Source: Clostridiales bacterium (GTDB lineage Bacteria; Bacillota; Clostridia; Christensenellales; Aristaeellaceae). Taken from it: DNA of 64,000 nucleotides. Position 1 is the stretch's first letter. Each line of letters opens with the position of its first letter. Both the position numbers and the translations under genes were made by a program. Below, piece after piece: positions 19,170-31,001 of this stretch. The notes beneath the pieces are model-generated. The model saw only the letters and a list, made by a program, of their open reading frames with translations. It was not told the origin of the DNA and did not search any database. The stretch spans positions 31,561 to 95,560 of the forward strand of contig SFET01000007.1 of the NCBI GenBank assembly GCA_004557125.1, in the 5' to 3' direction.

Positions 19170-20393
19170 TTAATCTGATGCAAGTTCGCCGCTCCCGGTC
19201 AGGCGGTAGCGCGCGCCGTTCACGGCGATGTACAGCTGCCGAGATTCGACCTCCAGCAGGAAGTCCTTGGCGACGCAGCCCTGGGAACGCAGGGAGGCGT
19301 AGACGCCGCCGCACAGCTCCAGCGCGGTGGACAGCTCGATCCGGTCGCCTTCCAGGACGAGCGACAGGGTTTCAATGCCGCTGCGGTTCAGGGTTTCCAG
19401 CGCGGAGAGATTGATCCCCCAGTGTTCGCCCGACGAAACGGGCTGCAGGTAGAGCATGGAGTCGTTCAGGCTTGCGGTGAAGGCTGCGTCGCCGTCCAGG
19501 GTCAGGTTCAATTCGGTTTCACCCAGCGTGAGGCGGGTCATCTCTGCGTCGGAGGCTTCCAGCGCCACCGTGCCGTAGAGCTGCATGTCCCTGCTGCCGG
19601 ACGCGTGGCTGCTGGTGAGCGCCTGACCGGGGGTGACGCGGAAGCCCTGCTCCACTTCGCCCTCCGTGCCCACGCCGCCGGAGCCGCGACTGCCGCCGCC
19701 AAAGCCGCCGCCCGAGGGCCTGCCGCCGCCGGGATTGCCCTGGACGAGGGTGAAGCGAAGCTCCTCGCAGGCCAGAGAGGTCTCGCCGGAGCGCACCTCC
19801 ACCCGAAGGGTGCAGGTGCCCTGGGCATAGTCCTGGGGATTGAGTTCGATGCGGCCTTCGGTTGTGCCCTGGGAGAGCAGCACCTCGCCCTGTTCGTCCG
19901 AGACCGTCACCTGCGCGCCATCGGCCTCTGCGGGCATCGTCCAGACGAAGGTCAGCTTCCCGTCGGGGCTGTTGATGGAAATCTGCCACACGCCGCCCAC
20001 CAGCTGCGCGTCGCCCTCCGGCAGCAGATTCAGGGTAGTTGCCGGCGCGGGTGTGTCGCTGGGTGCGGGTGTGTCGCTGGGCACGGGTGTGTCGCTGGGC
20101 ACGGGGGTGTCGCTGGGTGCGGGCGTGTCGCTGGGTACGGGGGTGTCGCTGGGCACGGGGGTGTCGCTGGGCACGGGGGTGTCGGTGGGTGCGGGTGTGT
20201 CGCTGGGTGCGGGGGTGTCGATCGGTGCGGGGGTATCGTTGGCGCCTGCTTCGGGGCTTTCAGGAGCCTGCGCGGCGGTCGGATTGGCCGACGTGGGGGG
20301 CGCTTCGGAAACCACAGGCTCCTCGGCCAGCGATGCGCCCAGCAGCATCAGCGCCGCCAGCAGGGCGCAGAGCCCGCGCTTATTCCTTGACAT
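19170..20393 (-). CDS. Secreted protein with a (D-T-P-[AV]-P-[STI])n linker and Gly-rich segment, unknown function
   Basis: Start at MSRNKRGLCALLAALMLLGASLA (signal peptide). 11 hexapeptide repeats. GGGRPSGGGFGGGSRGSGG tract. Beta-rich C-terminal region. No family recognised. Confidence 0.6.
   Translation of the reverse strand: MSRNKRGLCALLAALMLLGASLAEEPVVSEAPPTSANPTAAQAPESPEAGANDTPAPIDTPAPSDTPAPTDTPVPSDTPVPSDTPVPSDTPAPSDTPVPSDTPVPSDTPAPSDTPAPATTLNLLPEGDAQLVGGVWQISINSPDGKLTFVWTMPAEADGAQVTVSDEQGEVLLSQGTTEGRIELNPQDYAQGTCTLRVEVRSGETSLACEELRFTLVQGNPGGGRPSGGGFGGGSRGSGGVGTEGEVEQGFRVTPGQALTSSHASGSRDMQLYGTVALEASDAEMTRLTLGETELNLTLDGDAAFTASLNDSMLYLQPVSSGEHWGINLSALETLNRSGIETLSLVLEGDRIELSTALELCGGVYASLRSQGCVAKDFLLEVESRQLYIAVNGARYRLTGSGELASD
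20049..20238 (-). repeat. 18-bp in-frame tandem repeat (about 11 copies) encoding the DTPxPS units
   Basis: Plus-strand unit gtgtcgctggg[tc][ga]cggg[tgc]g is repeated head-to-tail with point variants. Confidence 0.9.
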
Positions 20394-21654
20394 GTCCGCT
20401 GCCTCCGTCCATCGGGCCGCCGAAGGCCGCCAGCGCATCCGGCATGCCCTCGCCGTCGGACGCAAACTCCCGGTCAAAGCCGCCCTTTCCCTCGGGTGCG
20501 GCTTCCTCCCCGGCGAGAGTCTCATCCTCGATTTCTTCCTCCCCGATGATCTCCTCATCCAGCGTGGAGACGATGACGCTCATGCCGTAGCGGGTGTCTG
20601 CGTCGGGGGTGAAGTCCACGTACACGGTGTAGGTGACTTCATCGGAGGACTCCATGCCGTCGCCGGAGCCGCTGCCCGAGCTGCTGTCGGCGATGGCGGA
20701 GATCATGGCGATGGTGCCGGTGTAGCGCACCTCCGCGTCGCTGTTCCAGTTGAGCTCGATCTCCACCGGGTCGCCCACCTGAACAAAGCCCAGGTTGGCC
20801 TCGGAGATCTGCGCCTGAATCTGCATGGCACCCTCGGGGTAGAGCACCGCCGCGACGCTGCCCTTCTCCAGCCTGTCGCCCTGCGTAAGGTTGACCTGGG
20901 CCAGAACGCCGTCGGCGGAGGCGAGGATGTCCGTGCCGCTCATGTACAGGCCGTCGAAGCTGCCCTCCAGGGTCTCGAACAGCAGATCGCCTCTCTGTAC
21001 GGTATCGCCATCCTGCACGGCGAGGGAGACGATGCTGCCGCTGGCGGTGACGGCGGTGGGATTCTTCCGATTCAGGGCGCCGCGGCCGATGCGGGCGGTG
21101 CTGGTCGCGGTCTCGCCGCGGTAGACGTTCACGGTCTCGCCGATCAGGAATTCGCCGGAGATGACCTCCACGGTGTAGTCGGTGCCCTCGATGGCGGTGA
21201 TCACGCCGGTTCCGCTGTGGCTGCCGTCGGAGTAGCAGCTGAGCAGCACCTCCTCGCCCACGTGGACGAACTTGTTTGCGGTGGTGTTGTAGGCGTTGTC
21301 GGTGGAGGCGGAGATGGTGTAGACGCTTTCGCCCTCGATGTACATCACCGCGCCGTAGCGCTCTGCGACGGTCTCGGCACTGTCGCCGATCTGGGCAAAC
21401 AGGCCGGTGATCACGCCGCCCTCCTCGGCGTAGACCTTGGTGGTCGCCAGGGTGGCCAGCACGTCGCCCGCGCGCACCTGCTGGCCCGCCACGACGCTGA
21501 CGCTCCCCACCGTGCCGCCGATGGGCGCGTAGATTTCGCTGGTGGACTTCGCCGCCACGGTTCCCGTGAAGCTGATGGTCTCCGCCAGCGCAGCCGGGGT
21601 CAGCAGCGCGCAGGCCAGCGCGCCGGTGAGGATGCGTTTGCTCAGGTTCTTCAT
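20380..21654 (-). CDS. Secreted HlyD-like protein with an acidic C-terminal tail
   Basis: GAGGAGG RBS 9 nt before the ATG. Signal peptide MKNLSKRILTGALACALLTPAALA. Lipoyl-like ..GDVLATL.., ..RGDLLFE... Tail rich in D/E/G. Confidence 0.65.
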   Translation of the reverse strand: MKNLSKRILTGALACALLTPAALAETISFTGTVAAKSTSEIYAPIGGTVGSVSVVAGQQVRAGDVLATLATTKVYAEEGGVITGLFAQIGDSAETVAERYGAVMYIEGESVYTISASTDNAYNTTANKFVHVGEEVLLSCYSDGSHSGTGVITAIEGTDYTVEVISGEFLIGETVNVYRGETATSTARIGRGALNRKNPTAVTASGSIVSLAVQDGDTVQRGDLLFETLEGSFDGLYMSGTDILASADGVLAQVNLTQGDRLEKGSVAAVLYPEGAMQIQAQISEANLGFVQVGDPVEIELNWNSDAEVRYTGTIAMISAIADSSSGSGSGDGMESSDEVTYTVYVDFTPDADTRYGMSVIVSTLDEEIIGEEEIEDETLAGEEAAPEGKGGFDREFASDGEGMPDALAAFGGPMDGGSGHVKE

Positions 21655-21679
21655 GTATGTGTACCTCCTCATAATATGT

Positions 21680-22883
21680 TTATACGGATCGAAGCGCGTC
21701 GATGGGGTTCAGGCGGCTTGCCTTGCGCGCCGGGGCCCAGCCAAACAGCACGCCCACGGCGGCGGAAAAGCCCACGCCCAGCGCGATCGCGCCCACGGAG
21801 AGCACGAACTGGGCGCTCATCGCCCTGCACATGGCGAAGGACAGGATCAGTCCCAGCGCCACGCCCGCCAGTCCGCCGATCAGCGACAGCAGGAAGGACT
21901 CCATCAGAAATTGCAGCTGAATCTGCCAGGGCAGTGCGCCCAGGGCCTTCTTCAGGCCGATCTCGGTGGTGCGCTCGGTGACGGAGGTGAGCATCATGTT
22001 CATGATGCCGATGCCGCCCACCACCAGCGCGATGGATGCGATGCCCGCCAGCAGCGCGGTCATCATGGAGAGCATCTCCTCCATGGTGTCCTCAATGCCG
22101 GACATGGTGGTCACGGTGAAGCAGTCCTCCTCGTAGCTGAACATGGCGTCCATGCTGGCCTCGATGCTGCTTGCGGCGGCTTCGCTGTCCACGCCGTCGG
22201 CGAGGTAGACGGTGAAGCTGGTCACGTCGCTGGTGTTGTTCATCTTCAGCGCGGTGGAGTAGGGGATGAGGATGTCGGCGCTGCCGGACATCAGGCTGGC
22301 CACGCTGGCGTCGCCGTCCTCGCTGAGCAGCCCCGCCACCAGGAAGGGCACGCCGTTGATGTACAGCGTCTCGCCGATGGGGTCCACGCCGTAGAAGAAG
22401 CTCTCCACCATGTCGGAGCTGATCCAGCAGACGAAGGACATCTGGTTTTCGTCGATGATGTTCAGCGCGCGGCCGCGCTCGAGCAGCGCATCGTTGGTGC
22501 GGAAGTAGTAGGCGTTCTTGCCGGACACGGAGATGTTCGTCTCGTAGCTGCCGCCCCGGGAGACGCGCGCGCTGAGGGAGACGCTGGGGGTCAGGCCGTC
22601 CACCTCGTCCATGGAGGAAAGCTCGGTCAGATCATCGGCGGTCATACCGGACTTCAGATCGCTGCCCGTGATGCTGACCATCAGCGTGCCCGCGCCCATG
22701 GAGCTGAAGGACGAGGTCAGGGAGCCGGACACGCCGGAGACGGTGGTGATCAGCGCGATGACCGCCGTCACGCCGATCAGGATGCCCAGCACCGTCAGGA
22801 ACGAGCGCACGCGGTTGGAGCGGATGTTGCTCAGCGACATGCGCACGCACTCCCGGATCATCACAAAGCTGCTGCGGATGGAT

Positions 22884-22891
<8 letters not shown>
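21680..22891 (-). CDS. ABC transporter permease, FtsX/MacB type
   Basis: N-terminal TM, large extracytoplasmic domain, C-terminal FtsX 3-TM bundle (..EIGLKKALGA....I..QFL.ES..). Confidence 0.85.
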
Positions 22892-23671
<780 letters not shown>

Positions 23672-23675
<4 letters not shown>

Positions 23676-24706
23676 GGATTGCCGCCCCCCGAATCGTTGC
23701 GTTCGGGCTTGGAGCCCATGTCGCCACTGAAGCTGCCGCCGAAGTCACCGGAGCCGCCGCGGCCCATGCCGCCGCCCGCCTGGGGCGCGTTCATCTGCTG
23801 GCTGCCGAAGAGCCCGGAGAGCAGGCCGCTCAGACCGCTGGCCGCTGCCTCGGCCTTGGCCTCCACGTACACCTCGTCGCCCTCGTTAACGCCACTGACG
23901 ATCTCCACGTAGTTGCCGTTGCTCACGCCGACCTCAACGGGTACCTCCTCCAGCTCGCCCGCGTCGTTGTACATGTACACGTAGGCGCTGTTGGTCTCGT
24001 CGAAGCTCAGCGCGTCCATCTTCAGGATGACCACGTTCTCGGCCTCCTCCTGGGGGATGGTCACGGTGGTCTGCATGCCGGGGTACACGCCCTCGTCCAC
24101 GTCCACGTAGGCCACGGCGGTGTAGTAGGCCACCGAGCCGCCGGCGGTGGAGATGTAGTCGATGGAGGCGATCTCGGATTCAAACTTCTGCTCGGTGGCG
24201 GTGACGGTCACGCTGCAGGCCTGGCCCACAGCCACGTCGGCGATGTCGTACTCATCCACCCGGAAGGAAACCTTCAGGTGGGTGAAGTCGGCCACCTGCA
24301 CCAGTGCGTCGCCGCTTGCGACCTCGTCGCCCTCCTTTACGCTCAGGCTGTTGACGCGGCCGTCGAACTCTGCCTTCACGGTGTCGCCGTTGGAGAGGCG
24401 AATCAGATTGTCACCCTCCGAAACGTCCTGACCGGCCTCCACATAGACCTTGCGCACGGTGGTGGACGCGCCGGAGGTGTAGCTGGCGCTGTCGATCAGC
24501 TGCAGGCTGCCGCTGAAGCTCAGCGAATTGGAGATGCTGCCGATGGAGGCGGTGTAGCCGTCGTAGGTCACGCTGTACTCCTGCTTGAGCATGCCGTAGC
24601 CGTACCAGCCGACACCGGCCAGGATCGTCAGGACGACGATGAGCGTCACGATTTTGCGCACGATGCGCCTGCGCCGGCGGTTTTTGCGAATGGGTTTGTC
24701 GTTCAT
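23672..24706 (-). CDS. Membrane-anchored HlyD-family periplasmic-adaptor-like protein
   Basis: N-terminal Arg-rich segment plus TM (IVTLIVVLTILAGVGWYGY). Lipoyl/beta-barrel blocks (..EGDNLIRL.., ..SGDALVQV..). Gly-rich tail. First gene of the operon. Confidence 0.8.
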
Positions 24707-24891
24707 GCGTATTTATCTCCCTGATTTGATACTTCGCATGCCCTGCGATGGAAGAATTATACGTTTCGTAGCTTAGCCGAGGCTTAGAAAACCGATGAAT
24801 GGACTGTGAACAAATGGAAGAATTCGTGAATTCGCGGGCAAAAGAAACAGCCCCGGAGCACATCGCTTCGGGGACGTTCGGGATTGCATTT

Positions 24892-25554
24892 TCAGCCCTC
24901 GTGGGGATAGAGCTTGAACAGAAAGGCGTCCACGGGGCCGGTGAGGAAGCTGTGCCGACCCATGGCGACGGATCGCAGCAGCGGTAGCGTCGCAAGCGTG
25001 CCGAGCATGCACACCAGCATGTCCTGCATGGTGTCGCCCACGCCGGTGTCGATCGCATGCTGCACATCCCGGCCGGTGAGGAGGGAGATCGCATATTCGC
25101 CCAGCTCCCACAGCCCCGCTACCGCCATGGAGCCGAAGAAGGTGAACAGGATTGCCAGAGGGAGATCCTGCTTTTCAATCCTGTGCCCCGGCTTCAGCGC
25201 GCAGTACAGCAGGATGCACAGCAGGCTCACGAACGCGCCGGAGAGCATGTGCACCAGCTTGTCGTAGCCGGGAAAGCGGGCGTAGAAATCCAGGCAGGAG
25301 CCAAGCGGGTACGCCAACAGCGTGAAGGCCAGGACCAGGAAGTCCAGCTGATGGATCCGCGGCAGATGAAACAGGCGGTAGAGCAGCGCCAGGCCCAGGG
25401 GGATGGCCAGCGTGCCCAGGGAGATGCCCAGGTGATAGCCGTCGCGCCGGACGGCGTAGACCGCGATCATGGCGGCGCTCAGCAGGTAATACAGCGCAAA
25501 AAGGATGCGGTTGATGCGCCCGCAGCGCGCTTCGATGCGCTCGATCCGGTTCAT
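24892..25554 (-). CDS. Polytopic membrane protein (possibly YjdF/DUF2238-like)
   Basis: 5-6 hydrophobic helices. ..YDKLVHMLSGAF.. and ..WELGEY.. resemble DUF2238 from memory only. Confidence 0.45.
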   Translation of the reverse strand: MNRIERIEARCGRINRILFALYYLLSAAMIAVYAVRRDGYHLGISLGTLAIPLGLALLYRLFHLPRIHQLDFLVLAFTLLAYPLGSCLDFYARFPGYDKLVHMLSGAFVSLLCILLYCALKPGHRIEKQDLPLAILFTFFGSMAVAGLWELGEYAISLLTGRDVQHAIDTGVGDTMQDMLVCMLGTLATLPLLRSVAMGRHSFLTGPVDAFLFKLYPHEG

Positions 25555-25626
25555 ATGATGCCCCACCTTCCGTCGTGTTCACGGATAAATGTAGCATTTC
25601 CGAATCAAGCCTGTGTCAATTCATCC

Positions 25627-26799
25627 TCAACGATTGTTGATGGAAATTTCCGCGTTGATCTCCTCGGACGAGGAATAGACGGTGAGCGCCCCGTCCGTCA
25701 GCTGCACCCAGGAGACGCTCTCCCCGAAGCAGCTGGGGCAGGGCAGCTTGCCGTCAGCATTGGCGGTGGCGATGCTGTGGGCCGAGGCGTTCTGCATGCC
25801 GGAGCAGTCCTCGGCCAGGTGGTAGTACACACTGCCCGGGGTGTAGTAGACCACGCCGACCCCATCTTCAGCCTCCGTCACGGCAGCGCTCTCGTAGAGG
25901 GTCAGCGGGTTCCAGGCGCAGTCCGAGCAGGCACCGTAGCCCTCCACCAGCGCCTGTTCCATGGTCAGCGCGCGGTCAAGGCTCTGTCCGCCGCAGTCGG
26001 GCACGCTGTGATAGTCGCTGCCCGGCGCGTCGTAACTTGCGTAGACGATGGAGGCCAGCGCCGCCGGCAGGAAGCAGTCGGTGCAGGGGCTCTTGCCCAG
26101 GGAGCGCGCCTCGGCGATGCTCATGAGGTTTGCGTTCTGCATGCCGGAGCAGTCGGACTCCTTGTGGAAGCAGACCCCGCCCTCCGTGCAGAACACCCAA
26201 CTTTCGACGCAGATGGGGCAGGCCTTCTTGCCCAGGGTCGCCGCCTTCTCCCTGGTCATGAGGGATGCGCCCTGCATGCCGGAGCAGTCTGCCTCGTTGT
26301 GATAGTAGTACCCACTCTGCGTGCAGTACACCACGCTTCCGATGCAGGCGGGACAGGCGGTCTTGCCCATGGCCTCGGCCTTCTCGATGGTCATGTGGGT
26401 CGCACCCTCCATGCCAGAGCAGTCGGGCTGACTGTGGTAGTATTTGCCGCCCTCCGTGCAGTAGACGGAGGCCTCGTCGTTCACGGGCGCGGGGGTGTCC
26501 GTGGGCTCAGGCGTGACTGTCGCGGTGGGTTCGGCTGTGACCGTCGCGCTGGGGGCGGGGGTCGGGGTCACGTTGGTTTGGCTCAGGGGGAGCAGGTCGG
26601 GCTTGGGCTGGTTCATGCGGCCCATGGAGAACAGCGCCGCGCCCAGCAGGATCACCAGCGCCGCGGCCACGGACAGCATGCCGGCCACCCTGCGCCGCCG
26701 CGCCGACAGTCGCGCGCCCCGAAGGAAGCCCAGGCGGATGGCCTCGCCCACGCAGTCGGGGGTCTGCGGGAAGGCCCGGTCGAAATCGATCCTGTTCAT
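25627..26799 (-). CDS. Putative anti-sigma factor: short cytoplasmic N-terminus, one TM, Pro/Thr linker, five H-x4-C-x21-C-x2-C modules
   Basis: ATGA-coupled to the ECF sigma gene. TM is MLSVAAALVILLGAALF. Five modules such as YYHSQPDCSGMEGATHMTIEKAEAMGKTACPAC. Confidence 0.6.
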   Translation of the reverse strand: MNRIDFDRAFPQTPDCVGEAIRLGFLRGARLSARRRRVAGMLSVAAALVILLGAALFSMGRMNQPKPDLLPLSQTNVTPTPAPSATVTAEPTATVTPEPTDTPAPVNDEASVYCTEGGKYYHSQPDCSGMEGATHMTIEKAEAMGKTACPACIGSVVYCTQSGYYYHNEADCSGMQGASLMTREKAATLGKKACPICVESWVFCTEGGVCFHKESDCSGMQNANLMSIAEARSLGKSPCTDCFLPAALASIVYASYDAPGSDYHSVPDCGGQSLDRALTMEQALVEGYGACSDCAWNPLTLYESAAVTEAEDGVGVVYYTPGSVYYHLAEDCSGMQNASAHSIATANADGKLPCPSCFGESVSWVQLTDGALTVYSSSEEINAEISINNR

Positions 26800-27278
26800 G
26801 CTTGTTCATCTCCCGCGTTGAGGATTTTGCGCAGGCTGTTTCGGGCCTGGTGCAGCCGGGACTTGACCAGGGAATAGGGGATGTCCAGAATCCGGCCCAC
26901 GTCGCGCAGGTCGTAGCCCTCCAGATAGCGCAGCAGCAGCGGCATGCGGTACTTCTCCGGCATGCTTTCAAGCGCCTCGCGCAGCTGCAGATCCTCGGTC
27001 ATGGAATCCTGCTGCGACGGGCTGACCTGCTCGTCCAGCGGAGACAGCCGCAGCTTCTGCTTCCGCTGCAAATTGCGGCACTCGTTGACCAGGATGCGCG
27101 CAAGCCAGGCCTCGAAACGCGCCTCCTCCTTCAGGGAGCCGCGCTTCATCCAGCCCTTGAACACCGCCTCCTGAATGGCGTCGGCACAGTCGGCGTCATT
27201 CCACAGCACGGCGCGGGCGATGCGGTAGAGCTTGCGCTCCATCGCCTGCACCCGTGCCATGTACTCCTGGTCGCTCAT
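26796..27278 (-). CDS. ECF-type sigma-70 family RNA polymerase sigma factor
   Basis: Region 2 (..DAIQEAVFKGW..) and region 4 (..LPEKYRMPLLLRYLEGYDLRDVGRILDIPYSLVKSRLHQAR..). AGGTG RBS before the ATG at 27278. Confidence 0.88.
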   Translation of the reverse strand: MSDQEYMARVQAMERKLYRIARAVLWNDADCADAIQEAVFKGWMKRGSLKEEARFEAWLARILVNECRNLQRKQKLRLSPLDEQVSPSQQDSMTEDLQLREALESMPEKYRMPLLLRYLEGYDLRDVGRILDIPYSLVKSRLHQARNSLRKILNAGDEQA

Positions 27279-27344
27279 GGTAACACCTGCATTCGTCTTT
27301 GCTGGAGCGCGCACCCTCGCGCGCTCCGCCGGGTTATCGCTGCA

Positions 27345-28100
27345 CTATTGGATGCACACGGGGCAGGCTTCCTTCCCCGCGCGGATTGCGTCCTCGGCGA
27401 ACACGGGAGATGCGTTCTCCATGCCCTGACAGTGGGCGTCGCTGTGATAGTATTTGCCCTTCGCGGTGGCGTAGCAGGTCGCCGCGATGCACACGGGGCA
27501 GGGCTCCTTCCCCGCAAGCACCGCATCCTCCGCGAACACCGGGACAGCGTTCTGCATGCCCTGACAGTGGGAATCGCTGTGGTAGTACCTGCCCTTCTCG
27601 GTGGCGTAGCAGGTCGCCGCGACGCATACCGGGCAGGCCTCCTTGCCCGCGAGGATCGCGTCCTCCGCAGTCACGGGAGAGGCGTTCTGCATGCCGCAGC
27701 AGTCGGAAATGCGGTGGAAGTACTTGCCCCGGGGCGTGGCGTAGTACGCGCCCTCGACGCACACGGGACAGGCAGCCTTTCCCCGTGCGGTCGCCTGCGC
27801 TTCCGTCAGCAGGGAGGCGTTCTGCATGCCCTGACACTGTTTGTCGAGGTGGTAGTATTTGCCCTGCTCGGTGGCGTAGACGCACCCCGCGATGCACAGC
27901 GGGCAGGGGGTCTTGCCGGAGAGCAGCATCTCCTCCTCGGTCATGGGGGATGCGTTCTGCATGCCGGAGCACTGTTTGTCGAGGTGGTAGTAGTTCCCCT
28001 CGGAGGTGGCGTAGAAGGTCTCGGCAGATGCGCATACGGGCAGCAGCATGCACAGAAGCAGCAGGACGCTGCAAGGAACTGCAATGAAAATCCGTTTCAT
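27345..28100 (-). CDS. Secreted protein made only of a signal peptide plus five 45-aa H-x4-C-x21-C-x2-C modules
   Basis: AGGAGGAAAG RBS. Signal peptide MKRIFIAVPCSVLLLLCMLLPVCASA. Five copies of YAT..G.YYH....C.GMQNA......A...GK..CP.C. Confidence 0.8.
   Translation of the reverse strand: MKRIFIAVPCSVLLLLCMLLPVCASAETFYATSEGNYYHLDKQCSGMQNASPMTEEEMLLSGKTPCPLCIAGCVYATEQGKYYHLDKQCQGMQNASLLTEAQATARGKAACPVCVEGAYYATPRGKYFHRISDCCGMQNASPVTAEDAILAGKEACPVCVAATCYATEKGRYYHSDSHCQGMQNAVPVFAEDAVLAGKEPCPVCIAATCYATAKGKYYHSDAHCQGMENASPVFAEDAIRAGKEACPVCIQ
27348..28013 (-). repeat. About 135-bp tandem DNA repeats (5 copies) encoding the Cys/His modules
   Basis: For example, the 27411-27530 and 27541-27660 units align with only scattered substitutions (gttctccatgccctgacagtgggcgtcgctg.. 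versus gttctgcatgccctgacagtgggaatcgctg..). Confidence 0.85.
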
Positions 28101-28153
28101 AAATCTTTCCTCCTGATCGGATGAATCATCTCAAGCATGCTTTCATCTATATA

Positions 28154-28179
28154 GACGAAGGGAAGTGCAGTTTGGTTGA
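28154..28179 (-). promoter_or_regulatory. Candidate ECF-type promoter for the Cys-module/sigma/anti-sigma operon
   Basis: Minus strand reads TCAAC-N17-CGTC (CAAC at 28178-28175, CGTC at 28157-28154), about 55 nt upstream of the start codon at 28100. Confidence 0.4.
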
Positions 28180-28226
28180 ATCTGCGGCAAAAAATATTGT
28201 TTTTTATGGATGCGGAGGAGCACGGC

Positions 28227-28252
28227 TGAACTTTTTCCGATTTCTGACCGTC
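28227..28252 (+). promoter_or_regulatory. Candidate ECF-type promoter for the MotA/MotB-like operon
   Basis: Plus strand reads TGAAC-N17-CGTC (28227-28231 and 28249-28252), about 125 nt upstream of the ATG at 28379. Confidence 0.4.
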
Positions 28253-28378
28253 CAAATGCGGAGAAAGCCGCATTTGTCGATATTTCGTCATGCGGGCATC
28301 CAGATTCCGTCGCATGCCGATGCTATACTGTATGTGTATAGCTATATCGGTGAGAAAGAACAGCAAACGGAGGTACAT

Positions 28379-29950
28379 ATGGGATTTCTTTCTTCCTTAA
28401 AGAGCATCCTGGGCGGCAGCTTTTTCAATCTGCTGATCTATGCAGTCATCCTGTTTGTCTTCATAATGGGCCTGATCAAGTGCGTGTTTCCGGTGCTGCG
28501 CACCCGGGGAACCCTGCGCAGCGCGATCCGCAACATCCGCGCCGGAACCGAGGCGAAGAAGTCCTGGCAGGAGGACGACTTCCTGGGCAAGGGCGTGCTC
28601 AGCGCTCACTGGAGCGAATACTTAAACAACCTGTTCTTCGCGGACGGCGTGTACCACAACGCCTCCAACGTGGAGGACTTCATCAATGAGGAGACCGTGA
28701 TCTACGGCCCCGGACGCGCCGCCTTCAGCGACGCCGTGCCCAGCCTGCTGGTCTCCATCGGCTTCCTGGGCACGCTGATCGGCCTGGCCCAGGGCCTCTC
28801 CGGCTTCAGCATGAGCGACTCCACCGCCGTGATGGACTCCATCGTCACGCTGATCCCCGGCATGCGTTACGCCTTCATGACCTCCATCTTCGGCGTGGTG
28901 GGCTCGGTGGGCTTCACGCTGATCACCCGCGCGGTGCAGGGCTCCACCGAGCACACGCTGCGCGACTTTTACAGCGCCATGAGTCGCCACGCGGGCGTGC
29001 TCTCCGTGGATCCGATGACCCAGGTGGCCATCTACCAGCAGGAGCAGACCGCGCTGATCCGCAAGATGGCAAACGACCTGGACGGCAAGCTGTCCGAGAA
29101 CATCGCCGGCGCGGTGGAGAGGGCCGTGGAGCCGCTGAACCAGAGCCTGAAGAACTTCGTCACCGTCGCCACCCGGGAACAGATGCGCTTCCTCGACGCG
29201 GTGGTGGGCCGGTTCATCGACCGCATGGACGAGATGCTGGGCGGCCAGATGAAGCGGCTGTCCGCGGCGCTGGACGAGACCGCCACGGTGCAGGAGAGCG
29301 CCCTGCGCGCCGTGCACGACAGCCTCGGCGAAACCGGCGAGATGCTGGACGGCATCCGCGAGGTCACGCGCATCGCCAACGACATGGTGCGCTCCAACGC
29401 CAAGTACATAGACGACCTGCGGCAGAACCAGAAGCAGACCGACGATGCCTTCTCCCGCGTGGCATCCAGCGTGGAGCAGATGGATCTGATCAGCCGCCAG
29501 CAGGCGAACTACCTCAAGTCCGTCTCCGCCATGCAGGCCGAGGTCGCCCGCAGCATCGACCAGATGAATTCCTCGCTGAACAACTTCACCAAGCGCGTGA
29601 CCGAGGACAGCGCCAACGCCTCCACCGGCATGCTCAAGGCCGCTGCGGAGCTGCGCGCCACCGGCGAGCACATCAAGGAGATCCACAAGGACTGCACCGA
29701 CGCGATCACTGCGGAGCTGAAGATGACGCTGGATTCCTATCAGGACTACGTCAACCAGTTCACCCAGCGCGTGGATTACCTGGCCGGAAGCATCTCCGAT
29801 TCCTTGAGCCACATGCCCCAGGCGGTGAACGATACCTCCAACCAGTTCCTGGATCAGGTGGACCGCCTCACCGACACCCTGGCCCAGGCCCAGCGCGTGC
29901 TGAACGAGACCGTTGCCCGCCTCTACGGCGACCAGCGGGCCCGGCACTGA
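28379..29950 (+). CDS. MotA/ExbB/TolQ-family proton-channel protein with a roughly 320-aa C-terminal helical tail (ZorA-like architecture)
   Basis: GGAGG lies 5 nt before the ATG. TM1 is FFNLLIYAVILFVFIMGLI. Channel hairpin LLVSIGFLGTLIGLAQG ... YAFMTSIFGVVGSVGFTLI. The remainder is uninterrupted helical/coiled-coil-like sequence. Confidence 0.7.
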   Translation: MGFLSSLKSILGGSFFNLLIYAVILFVFIMGLIKCVFPVLRTRGTLRSAIRNIRAGTEAKKSWQEDDFLGKGVLSAHWSEYLNNLFFADGVYHNASNVEDFINEETVIYGPGRAAFSDAVPSLLVSIGFLGTLIGLAQGLSGFSMSDSTAVMDSIVTLIPGMRYAFMTSIFGVVGSVGFTLITRAVQGSTEHTLRDFYSAMSRHAGVLSVDPMTQVAIYQQEQTALIRKMANDLDGKLSENIAGAVERAVEPLNQSLKNFVTVATREQMRFLDAVVGRFIDRMDEMLGGQMKRLSAALDETATVQESALRAVHDSLGETGEMLDGIREVTRIANDMVRSNAKYIDDLRQNQKQTDDAFSRVASSVEQMDLISRQQANYLKSVSAMQAEVARSIDQMNSSLNNFTKRVTEDSANASTGMLKAAAELRATGEHIKEIHKDCTDAITAELKMTLDSYQDYVNQFTQRVDYLAGSISDSLSHMPQAVNDTSNQFLDQVDRLTDTLAQAQRVLNETVARLYGDQRARH

Positions 29951-29972: not shown

Positions 29973-31001
29973 GTGAAGCGCATGCGATCCAACCGAAGGA
30001 CGCTCGCCCGGCGGTACGGGCGCAACGACGGCAGCTTCTGGCTGAGCTTTTCGGATCTGATGAGCTCGCTGGTGCTGATTATCATTCTGGTGATGTTCTA
30101 CATCATCTATCAATACTTCAACCTGGCGGAGATCAACCAGGCGGAGATCGCCCGCCGCCAGTATCAGCTGGACGAGGCCCAGGCCGAGCTGGAGACCCAG
30201 CAGGGCAAGCTCACCGAGGCGGAGAAGCAGATGATCGCCCAGCAGATTCTGCTGGACGCGAAGCAGGAGGAGCTGGACAGCGCCCAGGCGGTGCTGGAGG
30301 CCCAGAAGACCGAGCTTGCGGATACCCAGGCCCAGCTCAGCGAGAAGGAGGCCGAAATCGCCGCCCAGCAGGCGCAGATGGAGGCCCTGGGCATCCAGCT
30401 GGACGAGCAGCAGGCCCAGATCAACACCCAACAGGCCCAGCTGGACAACCAGCAGGCCCAGATCGAGCAGCTGGTGGGCATGAAGACCCGCATCATCACC
30501 TCGCTCTCCAGCGCGCTGAAGAGCAGCAGCATCTCCGCCACGGTGGATCCCACCACCGGCTCCATCGCCCTGGAATCGGACGTGCTGTTTGAATCCGGCG
30601 AGTACAAGCTCACCGACGCGGGCAAGCGCTTCGTGGACAAGTTCCTGCCGGTGTATCTGGACGTGCTGTTCTCCGAGGAGTACAAGGGCTACGTCTCCGA
30701 GATCATCATCGAGGGCCACACGGACTCCGTGGGCGGGTATCTGACCAACCTGGAACTCTCCCAGCAGCGCGCGCTGGCCGTGGCCAGCTATGTGCTGGGC
30801 GACAGCTGCCGCGCGATCTCGGCGGACGTCAAAAATACGCTCCGACCGGTGGTCACCGTCAACGGCCGCAGTTATAGCGATCGCATCTTCAACGCCGACG
30901 GCACCGAGAACATGGACGCCTCCCGAAGGGTCGTGTTCAAGTTCCGCCTCACCGACGAGCAGATGATCCAGCAGCTGCGCCAGATCTTGGAATCCGAATA
31001 A
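29973..31001 (+). CDS. MotB/OmpA-family peptidoglycan-binding partner with a coiled-coil spacer
   Basis: N-terminal FWLSFSDLMSSLVLIIIL (MotB-type TM with the conserved Asp). About 115-aa Q/E-rich coiled coil. OmpA-like IIIEGHTDSVG..NLELSQQRALAV..SRRVVFKF. GTG at 29973; the ATG at 29982 is an alternative start. Confidence 0.75.
   Translation: MKRMRSNRRTLARRYGRNDGSFWLSFSDLMSSLVLIIILVMFYIIYQYFNLAEINQAEIARRQYQLDEAQAELETQQGKLTEAEKQMIAQQILLDAKQEELDSAQAVLEAQKTELADTQAQLSEKEAEIAAQQAQMEALGIQLDEQQAQINTQQAQLDNQQAQIEQLVGMKTRIITSLSSALKSSSISATVDPTTGSIALESDVLFESGEYKLTDAGKRFVDKFLPVYLDVLFSEEYKGYVSEIIIEGHTDSVGGYLTNLELSQQRALAVASYVLGDSCRAISADVKNTLRPVVTVNGRSYSDRIFNADGTENMDASRRVVFKFRLTDEQMIQQLRQILESE

Follow-up and report, generated by a model that had tools for sequence, protein, structure and literature searches.

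Extracytoplasmic function (ECF) sigma factors and their anti-sigma factors are the main reporters of envelope stress in bacteria, and for most pairs, especially in uncultured gut anaerobes, the sensed signal is unknown. In zinc-binding anti-sigma (ZAS) factors such as RsrA, RslA and RsiW, an H-x3-C-x2-C motif lies in the cytoplasmic sigma-binding domain, and oxidation of the RsrA site frees the sigma factor. The clostridial RsgI/sigma-I systems use carbohydrate-sensing ectodomains. The RsiV/sigma-V pair is a lysozyme receptor system (PMC4183432). Here we describe an ECF locus in a 64-kb window, which is the whole stretch of contig SFET01000007.1 that was analysed and in whose numbering all positions are given. 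The host is an uncultured gut Clostridium near Aristaeellaceae/Christensenellales metagenome-assembled genomes (MAGs). Three co-oriented open reading frames (ORFs) on the minus strand encode a secreted protein (gene 1), a sigma factor and a single-pass membrane protein (gene 3). We are highly confident that the locus joins an ECF sigma/anti-sigma pair to a new ectodomain of tandem metal-knuckle modules and to a co-transcribed paralogue of that ectodomain.

Gene 3 resembles the ZAS factors in that the state of the anti-sigma factor may depend on a zinc-thiolate site. In contrast to them, its cytoplasmic segment of approximately 37 aa lacks the ZAS motif, and its candidate zinc sites would lie outside the cell and in five copies. 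With RsiV and RsgI it shares the layout of a single-pass Firmicutes anti-sigma factor with a modular ectodomain. In RsiV and RsgI it is the ectodomain whose state decides whether the protein is cut step by step and the sigma factor set free, and an equivalent control is predicted for gene 3 by analogy. However, the ectodomain folds and the sigma families differ, and neither the RsiV nor the RsgI system has a co-transcribed secreted paralogue of its sensor. For the module itself, the nearest published description is that of ADA_N-like, an ECOD group of remote Ada-type zinc fingers (Pei, Schaeffer, Cong & Grishin 2025, PMC12353581). Its members, of unknown function, are terminal domains of proteins that Gram-positive bacteria secrete or place in the membrane. 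Cwp27 and a ComEC/Rec2 protein of C. difficile carry one, as does ArfC of M. tuberculosis, and such domains also occur on CW_binding_2, LGFP and ComEC proteins (PMC12353581). The published copies are single and mostly C-terminal, and neither tandem arrays nor anti-sigma fusions are described there (PMC12353581).

The original prediction, made from the DNA alone, had proposed three minus-strand ORFs, a first gene consisting of a signal peptide and five modules, and a third gene that is ATGA-coupled to the sigma gene and consists of a short N-terminus, one transmembrane (TM) helix, a Pro/Thr linker and five further modules. ORF analysis of the window and module mapping confirmed this arrangement (Table 1), and the H-x4-C-x21-C-x2-C spacing that had been claimed for all modules was exact in 10/10. 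The identification of the middle gene as an ECF sigma factor also held. Pfam and NCBIfam scans of its product found Sigma70_r4_2 (E = 4e-15), Sigma70_r2 (E = 1e-10) and a Sigma70_ECF match, and the TIGR02937 score was 79.3 bits against a cut-off of 42.9. As in ECF group 4, the protein has regions 2 and 4 without regions 1.1 or 3, and its 160 aa fall within the range of that class (approximately 160-200 aa). The ATG at 27278 is the most likely start, because it has an AGGTG ribosome-binding site and gene callers use the same start in four public contigs. A GTG at 27314 is an unlikely start because it lies inside the hairpin that precedes the sigma gene.

Gene 3 lies directly 3' of the sigma gene, overlaps it by ATGA and has a single TM helix (aa 38-60), as expected of a membrane anti-sigma factor with its N-terminus inside the cell. 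It has no ASD, zf-HC2 or RskA-type anti-sigma domain, and the ZAS motif H-x3-C-x2-C is absent from its cytoplasmic aa 1-37, where there is only one Cys. For its comparative context, 173 proteins from the searches and all ORFs at 122 loci were grouped according to their architecture. One class, class A, was defined by an N-terminal D-[FL]-D-R-A-F-x2-T-P ... G-F-x-[KR]-G motif and a helix at about aa 38-60, followed by 2-12 modules. In every complete case among more than 12 loci of other species, the class-A gene came immediately after an ECF sigma gene, and the two typically overlapped (-3) at the junction (loci L005, L039, L042, L068, L074, L079, L094, L096, L097, L114 and L119 are among them). 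In many class-A relatives the modules are followed by a further, C-terminal domain of 170-380 aa. Linkage to a sigma gene was likewise seen at L075 for a different N-terminus, MKNxxxxELxxVxVS.... This context is solid, and together with position, coupling and topology it supports the earlier proposal that gene 3 encodes a sigma-coupled protein, putatively a membrane anti-sigma factor. The fusion of the module to anti-sigma factors, a survey of which had also been suggested, recurs in class A and at L075, but most module proteins have no sigma gene nearby.

The module comprises approximately 43 residues, and its H-x4-C-x21-C-x2-C spacing was exact in 114/131 modules of relatives. When 43 diverse modules were aligned, the only invariant columns were His12, Cys17, Cys39 and Cys42. 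These four residues were kept in 97.7% of 984 modules delimited with a hidden Markov model (HMM), although this HMM was built from modules with the H-C-C-C set and is thus biased to intact sites. All exceptions fell at ligand 2, where His (11), Asp (4), Thr (4), Ser (2) or a gap (2) was found. Since the replacements are mainly metal ligands and the number of cysteines per module is odd, a HisCys3 metal site is favoured over a disulfide; with three Cys and one His per module, disulfides cannot satisfy all of them. The pattern is that of a structural HisCys3 site, with four invariant ligands whose rare replacements are mostly His or Asp, and the metal-site-like character that had been ascribed to the motif is upheld. 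Each knuckle most likely binds one Zn(II) via His12, Cys17, Cys39 and Cys42. Other well-conserved positions were Y3, T5, G8, Y10, Y11, S18, G19, M20, A23, A31, G35, K36 and P40, and some modules have a fifth Cys (column 4 is Cys in 15%).

The module family is large. An exhaustive profile search of 1.84 billion cluster representatives retrieved 4,924 at E <= 1e-3, 547 at <= 1e-10 and 197 at <= 1e-30, with hits down to E = 5e-233, which is far beyond chance, and with up to 17 module copies per protein. By contrast, no more than 26 relatives came from a word-indexed search that started from gene 1, and most of them were gene 3 orthologues. Among species-representative genomes, the degenerate DNA pattern for YYH-x4-CSGM-x-NA was found in at least 118 contigs. 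Those listed were essentially all from uncultured gut, rumen or digester Clostridia, frequently labelled Christensenellales, Aristaeellaceae, Pullichristensenella or Oscillospiraceae. The same pattern was not found in viral contigs, and a phage origin of the module is thus unlikely. Neither Pfam-A nor NCBIfam holds a family for genes 1 and 3 or for any of 43 single modules (Pfam searched to E <= 10). A PADLOC scan of genes 1 and 3 gave no credible family. When module profiles were searched against PDB sequences, nothing passed the threshold; the matches below it were to the CxxC of the zinc ribbon in ribosomal protein eL43, which was rejected as a relative because the similarity is of the generic CxxC kind. 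The module is a common and so far uncatalogued building block of one bacterial clade. A 13-module ORF was also seen on a short contig binned as Akkermansia (L067, JAGBDZ010000054.1, 4,607 bp); as all other hits came from Clostridia, this is probably a binning error and not a horizontal transfer.

The fold was predicted with AlphaFold2 (AF2) from the module alignment. The predicted local distance difference test (pLDDT) score was 91.7 for one module and 85.4 for two, and the predicted template modelling score (pTM) of the two-module model was only 0.59. The predicted topology is beta-beta-beta-alpha, in which strand 2 ends with ligand 1, the loop behind it holds ligand 2, and the helix is closely followed by ligands 3 and 4; the ligand geometry is deduced from topology only. 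Ada had been named as a candidate family before the fold and profile tests, and its profile was built from 25 non-redundant PF02805 domains. Local hhalign aligned the module helix and CPxC with Ada 'ASEALAAGFRPCKRC' at 69% probability (P = 4.4e-5) over 17 columns only, and greedy hhalign placed 3/4 ligands in register. Reciprocal searches with the module and Ada HMMs gave weak hits both ways. With the two-module model as query, the top Foldseek hit among 350,542 PDB chains was 1zgw, E. coli Ada with DNA. These three tests are weak but agree in pointing to the fold of the Ada N-terminal zinc finger, and with PMC12353581 they turn Ada from the example of ligand spacing that it had been in the original prediction into the best candidate for a true, if distant, relative.

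On sequence and model together, it is rather probable that the module is a divergent, tandemly amplified branch of the ADA_N-like group with an Ada-type fold. Both would be small zinc fingers borne by proteins that Gram-positive bacteria secrete or anchor in the membrane, and their ligand layout is similar, one pair following strand 2 and the other lying at a short helix or just behind it. They differ in that ligand 1 of the module is His and not Cys, and in that the spacing is x4/x21 and not x3/x26; the Cwp27 and ComEC domains were compared by their published description only. Ada itself (PF02805; Cys38/42/69/72 in E. coli) shares with the module a four-ligand site, a beta-hairpin before ligand 1 and, C-terminally, an A-x3-G-x3-C-x2-C element that aligns in register. 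Unlike the module, Ada is cytoplasmic, binds DNA and has a single copy of the finger, followed by an AraC-type helix-turn-helix; its site is Cys4, C-x3-C-x26-C-x2-C, where the module has HisCys3.

Upstream of gene 1, approximately 50 nt before its start, lies a CAACC-N16-CGTCTA motif, of the AAC ... CGT type that is typical of ECF promoters, with 1 match in the window against 0.02 expected, within a block that is conserved in close relatives. In distant class-A operons it is the sigma gene that has this motif in front of it (L096, L080 and L119, with a variant in L097). Since the motif stands before the sigma gene in those operons and before gene 1 in the lineage of the window, the paralogue appears to have been inserted behind an autoregulated promoter and ahead of the sigma gene. 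It would accordingly belong to an autoregulated operon and be induced along with the sigma gene. Among the loci compared, the trio of secreted paralogue, sigma factor and anti-sigma factor was confined to the window and to three loci closely related to it: L026, which is from an Aristaeellaceae MAG, L036 and L068.

The original prediction had described the DNA repeats as highly similar and had taken this as a sign of recent expansion or homogenisation. The first statement did not hold, as nucleotide identity was 64-84% for pairs of gene 1 modules, 43-74% for pairs of gene 3 modules and 46-65% when a module of one gene was compared with one of the other. Recent expansion could be retained for gene 1 modules 4 and 5, the only pair that looks recent, but not for any other pair. 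The gene 1 orthologues in L026, L036 and L068 have four modules against five in the window, and since they lack one copy and modules 4 and 5 are so similar, the extra module is best read as a recent duplication of this pair. Orthologues of gene 3 have five or six modules and total lengths of 382, 390 or 400 aa, and their linker changes in length by 8-aa TATVTPEP-type units. A copy number of four or five in gene 1 and of five or six in gene 3 fits additive, interchangeable units, such as a buffer or a fuse.

The 9-bp GC hairpin that had been noted between gene 1 and the sigma gene is present. Its stem is kept in L036, where the loop differs, and its stability (z = -1.3) is ordinary for the local GC content. 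A T-tract was sought after the hairpin and none was found, so a canonical intrinsic terminator was rejected. The hairpin may be an RNA-stability or partial-attenuation element.

An autoregulated three-gene ECF operon in the order promoter, secreted paralogue, sigma factor and anti-sigma factor is the best explanation of the locus, although we give this reading, taken as a whole with its proposed mechanism, somewhat less than an even chance. In that mechanism, the short cytoplasmic N-terminus of gene 3 would hold the sigma factor, and in the reducing gut the zinc-thiolate sites would keep the ectodomain folded and protease-resistant. Stripping or modification of the sites, for which oxidants, electrophiles, thiophilic metals and zinc withdrawal are candidate triggers, would unfold the modules. 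Site-1 cleavage, intramembrane proteolysis and release of the sigma factor would follow, and by analogy with RsiW, RsiV and RsgI this stepwise proteolysis would be controlled by the state of the ectodomain. The freed sigma factor would then transcribe its own operon from the CAACC-N16-CGTCTA promoter. The first product would be the secreted five-module paralogue which, as it carries the same sites, could soak up the same insult or compete for the same protease and thereby damp the response. That the system is a metal/redox fuse with the paralogue as a decoy is a possibility that we put forward tentatively. The original prediction had likewise suggested metal- or redox-sensitive modules and a decoy or co-sensor role of the paralogue, and both ideas are conjecture. 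More doubtful is the extension in which the ectodomain is an extracellular analogue of the ZAS switch, an array of zinc-thiolate knuckles on the outside of a strict anaerobe that would be a sacrificial fuse for oxidants, electrophiles, thiophilic metals or zinc withdrawal by the host. Failure of the fuse would destroy the anti-sigma factor, with the secreted copy buffering the insult and resetting the system.

Several observations weigh against this reading. The secreted paralogue is restricted to one narrow lineage and is thus not essential to the system. Most module proteins have no sigma gene nearby, which argues that the module is not intrinsically a signalling device and may be a stable spacer. 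Neither the 37-aa segment of gene 3 nor its alignment with relatives (26 sequences) matched an anti-sigma family in Pfam, NCBIfam or the PDB. The link to Ada was weak in every single test: the Foldseek hit to 1zgw covered 53 columns at 23% identity with E = 2, Foldseek with a single 43-residue module gave no hit (the query was probably too short), global hhalign of the module against Ada was poor, and PF02805 missed the whole proteins (E <= 1) and 43/43 single modules (E <= 10).

In one alternative view, the modules are passive, zinc-stabilised beads in a rigid or semi-rigid stalk, which carries the real sensor through the thick Gram-positive wall. Candidates for the sensing element within gene 3 would then be module 4, which is divergent, and the C-terminal tail, which is conserved; the beads would be spacers in other proteins as well, and gene 1 would be just another wall protein in the regulon. 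Arrays of 2-17 copies do occur in many unrelated architectures, mostly without a sigma gene, and linker lengths and copy numbers vary freely. In addition, module 4 and the tail are distinct from the other modules yet kept in orthologues, and many class-A relatives have the extra C-terminal domain. However, the ectodomain of gene 3 in the window is nearly all modules with a tail of only 32 aa, a rigid rod is not predicted by the two-module pTM, and modules unrelated to the signal would not readily explain why the operon opens with a paralogue made of nothing but modules. We regard the stalk as unlikely, if not very much so. A ligand-binding function, lectin-like or directed at a wall polymer, would make the system RsgI- or RsiV-like, with an extracellular macromolecule triggering cleavage and the secreted paralogue competing or scouting for the same ligand. 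It would account for the strong conservation outside the metal site, including the aromatic pair beside it, and for the co-occurrence with the envelope domains LytR_cpsA_psr, BspA-type leucine-rich repeats (LRR) and WG repeats; the ADA_N-like domains on wall-binding and ComEC proteins (PMC12353581) point the same way. No result of the analysis points to any ligand, however, and the domain is small enough for every conserved residue to have a structural role. Net charge per module is -1.5 for the anti-sigma class but +4.9 for class B, which speaks against a common polyanionic ligand. The ligand model is improbable to our minds. Binding of a polyanion such as DNA or teichoic acid in this system was rejected, as its modules are acidic and charge is not kept across classes.

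The same acidity (net charge -7 for mature gene 1 and -24 for the gene 3 ectodomain) disfavours DNA binding in a model of Ada-like extracellular chemistry, in which the modules would bind DNA or accept alkyl groups or electrophiles on a zinc-activated Cys and the operon would sense these. Structural work by He et al. (2005) reportedly assigned the phosphotriester methyl acceptor of Ada to Cys38, and the module has His at the equivalent position. A published account gives the acceptor as Cys69, whose equivalent is kept in the module, and the same account speculates that ADA_N-like domains sense alkylated DNA and notes the ComEC fusion (PMC12353581). The resemblance to DNA-bound Ada (1zgw) favours such chemistry, but the relationship to Ada itself is only probable, and we hold the model to be very unlikely. 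Even less credence is given to disulfides or free redox-active thiols without a metal. Such bonds would suit Cys-rich extracytoplasmic proteins, some of them with the additional Cys in column 4, but three invariant Cys with an invariant His leave an odd number per module, ligand 2 is replaced by His or Asp, the hosts are strict gut or rumen anaerobes in which extracellular disulfides are unlikely to be stable, and the predicted ligand topology matches a zinc knuckle.

There is nothing unusual about ECF sigma/anti-sigma pairs as such, and Ada-type zinc fingers outside the cell already have one mention in the literature. What is new is the family of tandem HisCys3 modules, which has no Pfam or NCBIfam entry although gut Clostridia contain it in great abundance. 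Also new are the repeated appearance of the module as the ectodomain of an anti-sigma factor of a novel, very short type and, in this lineage, the co-transcribed secreted paralogue. Literature searches yielded no earlier account of the module in tandem arrays or on an anti-sigma factor, PMC12353581 being the only related paper. The analysis defines a sensor module without a database entry that occurs in thousands of protein clusters of gut and rumen Clostridia. If the modules bind zinc through thiolates outside the cell, they are natural candidates for the sensing of oxygen, oxidants and metal stress by strict anaerobes at their surface, and in the secreted paralogue a sensor domain would, unusually, have been re-used as the induced effector. 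Should the fuse model be correct, sensor and effector would be built from one module, ECF signalling would gain a new principle of input, and the thousands of multi-module surface proteins of gut Clostridia might form an extracellular thiol/zinc buffer layer.

Table 1. Features of the three-gene operon, in window positions.
Feature	Position	Strand	Basis or remark
ECF-type promoter-like motif CAACC-N16-CGTCTA	28152-28178	-	sole match in the 64-kb window
Gene 1, secreted protein, 251 aa	27345-28100	-	ORF and module mapping
Gene 1 signal peptide, aa 1-26	28023-28100	-	hydrophobic, ends ASA
Gene 1 module array, five 43-aa modules on a 45-aa period	27348-28019	-	module mapping
Gene 1 module 4, one partner of the recent duplication	27486-27614	-	84% nt and 81% aa identity to module 5
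Gene 1 module 5	27351-27479	-	partner of module 4
9-bp GC stem with 6-nt loop	27304-27327	-	within the 66-nt gap from gene 1 to the sigma gene
ECF sigma factor, 160 aa from ATG at 27278	26796-27278	-	Sigma70_r2, Sigma70_r4_2, TIGR02937
Gene 3, putative single-pass anti-sigma factor, 390 aa	25627-26799	-	ATGA shared with the end of the sigma gene
Gene 3 cytoplasmic segment, aa 1-37, presumed sigma-binding part	26689-26799	-	conserved motif in alignment
Gene 3 TM helix, aa 38-60	26620-26688	-	hydrophobic run, shared in position by all class-A relatives
Gene 3 Pro/Thr-rich linker, aa 61-110	26470-26619	-	length differs between orthologues
24-nt tandem repeat (2.2 copies) in the gene 3 linker	26501-26553	-	inside the Pro/Thr-rich linker
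Gene 3 ectodomain, five modules	25726-26469	-	modules 1-3 on a 45-aa period
Gene 3 module 4	25915-26043	-	divergent, H/C/C/C kept
Gene 3 module 5	25726-25854	-	module mapping
Gene 3 C-terminal tail, aa 359-390	25630-25725	-	kept among orthologues

Downstream of gene 3, at 20380-25566 on the minus strand, are genes for a DUF2238 membrane protein, an HlyD/YknX-type adaptor and an ABC ATPase, and two ORFs of approximately 400 aa that are likely permeases. Together these make up a MacAB/YknXYZ-like efflux set, and the synteny is kept in the public contig L001. No ECF motif was found upstream of the DUF2238 and efflux genes, which have a TATAAT (-10) box of their own, and their membership of the regulon has no support on these grounds. 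On the other side, a gene pair on the plus strand is divergent from the operon (28121-29950, where an ATG near 28379 is the likelier start, and 29973-31001). In PADLOC the pair matched ZorA (E = 3e-26) and ZorB (E = 3e-69) of Zorya, and in Pfam it showed a weak MotA_ExbB match and OmpA. No large plus-strand ORF that would fit ZorC or ZorD follows, the next genes being on the minus strand. The two genes may represent a Zorya system that is incomplete or atypical; alternatively, they may be MotAB-like and serve some other purpose.

Beyond the anti-sigma class, the commonest architecture with the module was a large membrane protein that is not an anti-sigma factor (L008, L029, L045, L101 and many others; for example L029:1916-5077). 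Behind its conserved N-terminus, MATHxIGKLKFNLSKxGLAYRWGDGEIHRLF, come an extended cytoplasmic region that is acidic, a single TM helix and 8-16 modules, which are strongly basic, with a net charge of +4.9 each. Among the classes without a sigma gene, large acidic cytoplasmic regions with 5-16 modules were the commonest form. The gene for the commonest architecture was often divergent from a PGA_cap-family gene and adjoined MutY; the neighbours of the common class-B module proteins (GalT-like, PGA_cap and MutY) did not hint at a function. Where other lineages have secreted arrays, the surrounding genes are housekeeping genes. The module was also, on occasion, found fused to LytR_cpsA_psr in protein P0086, and to WG repeats and BspA-type leucine-rich repeats in protein P0132 (L046:738-3833).

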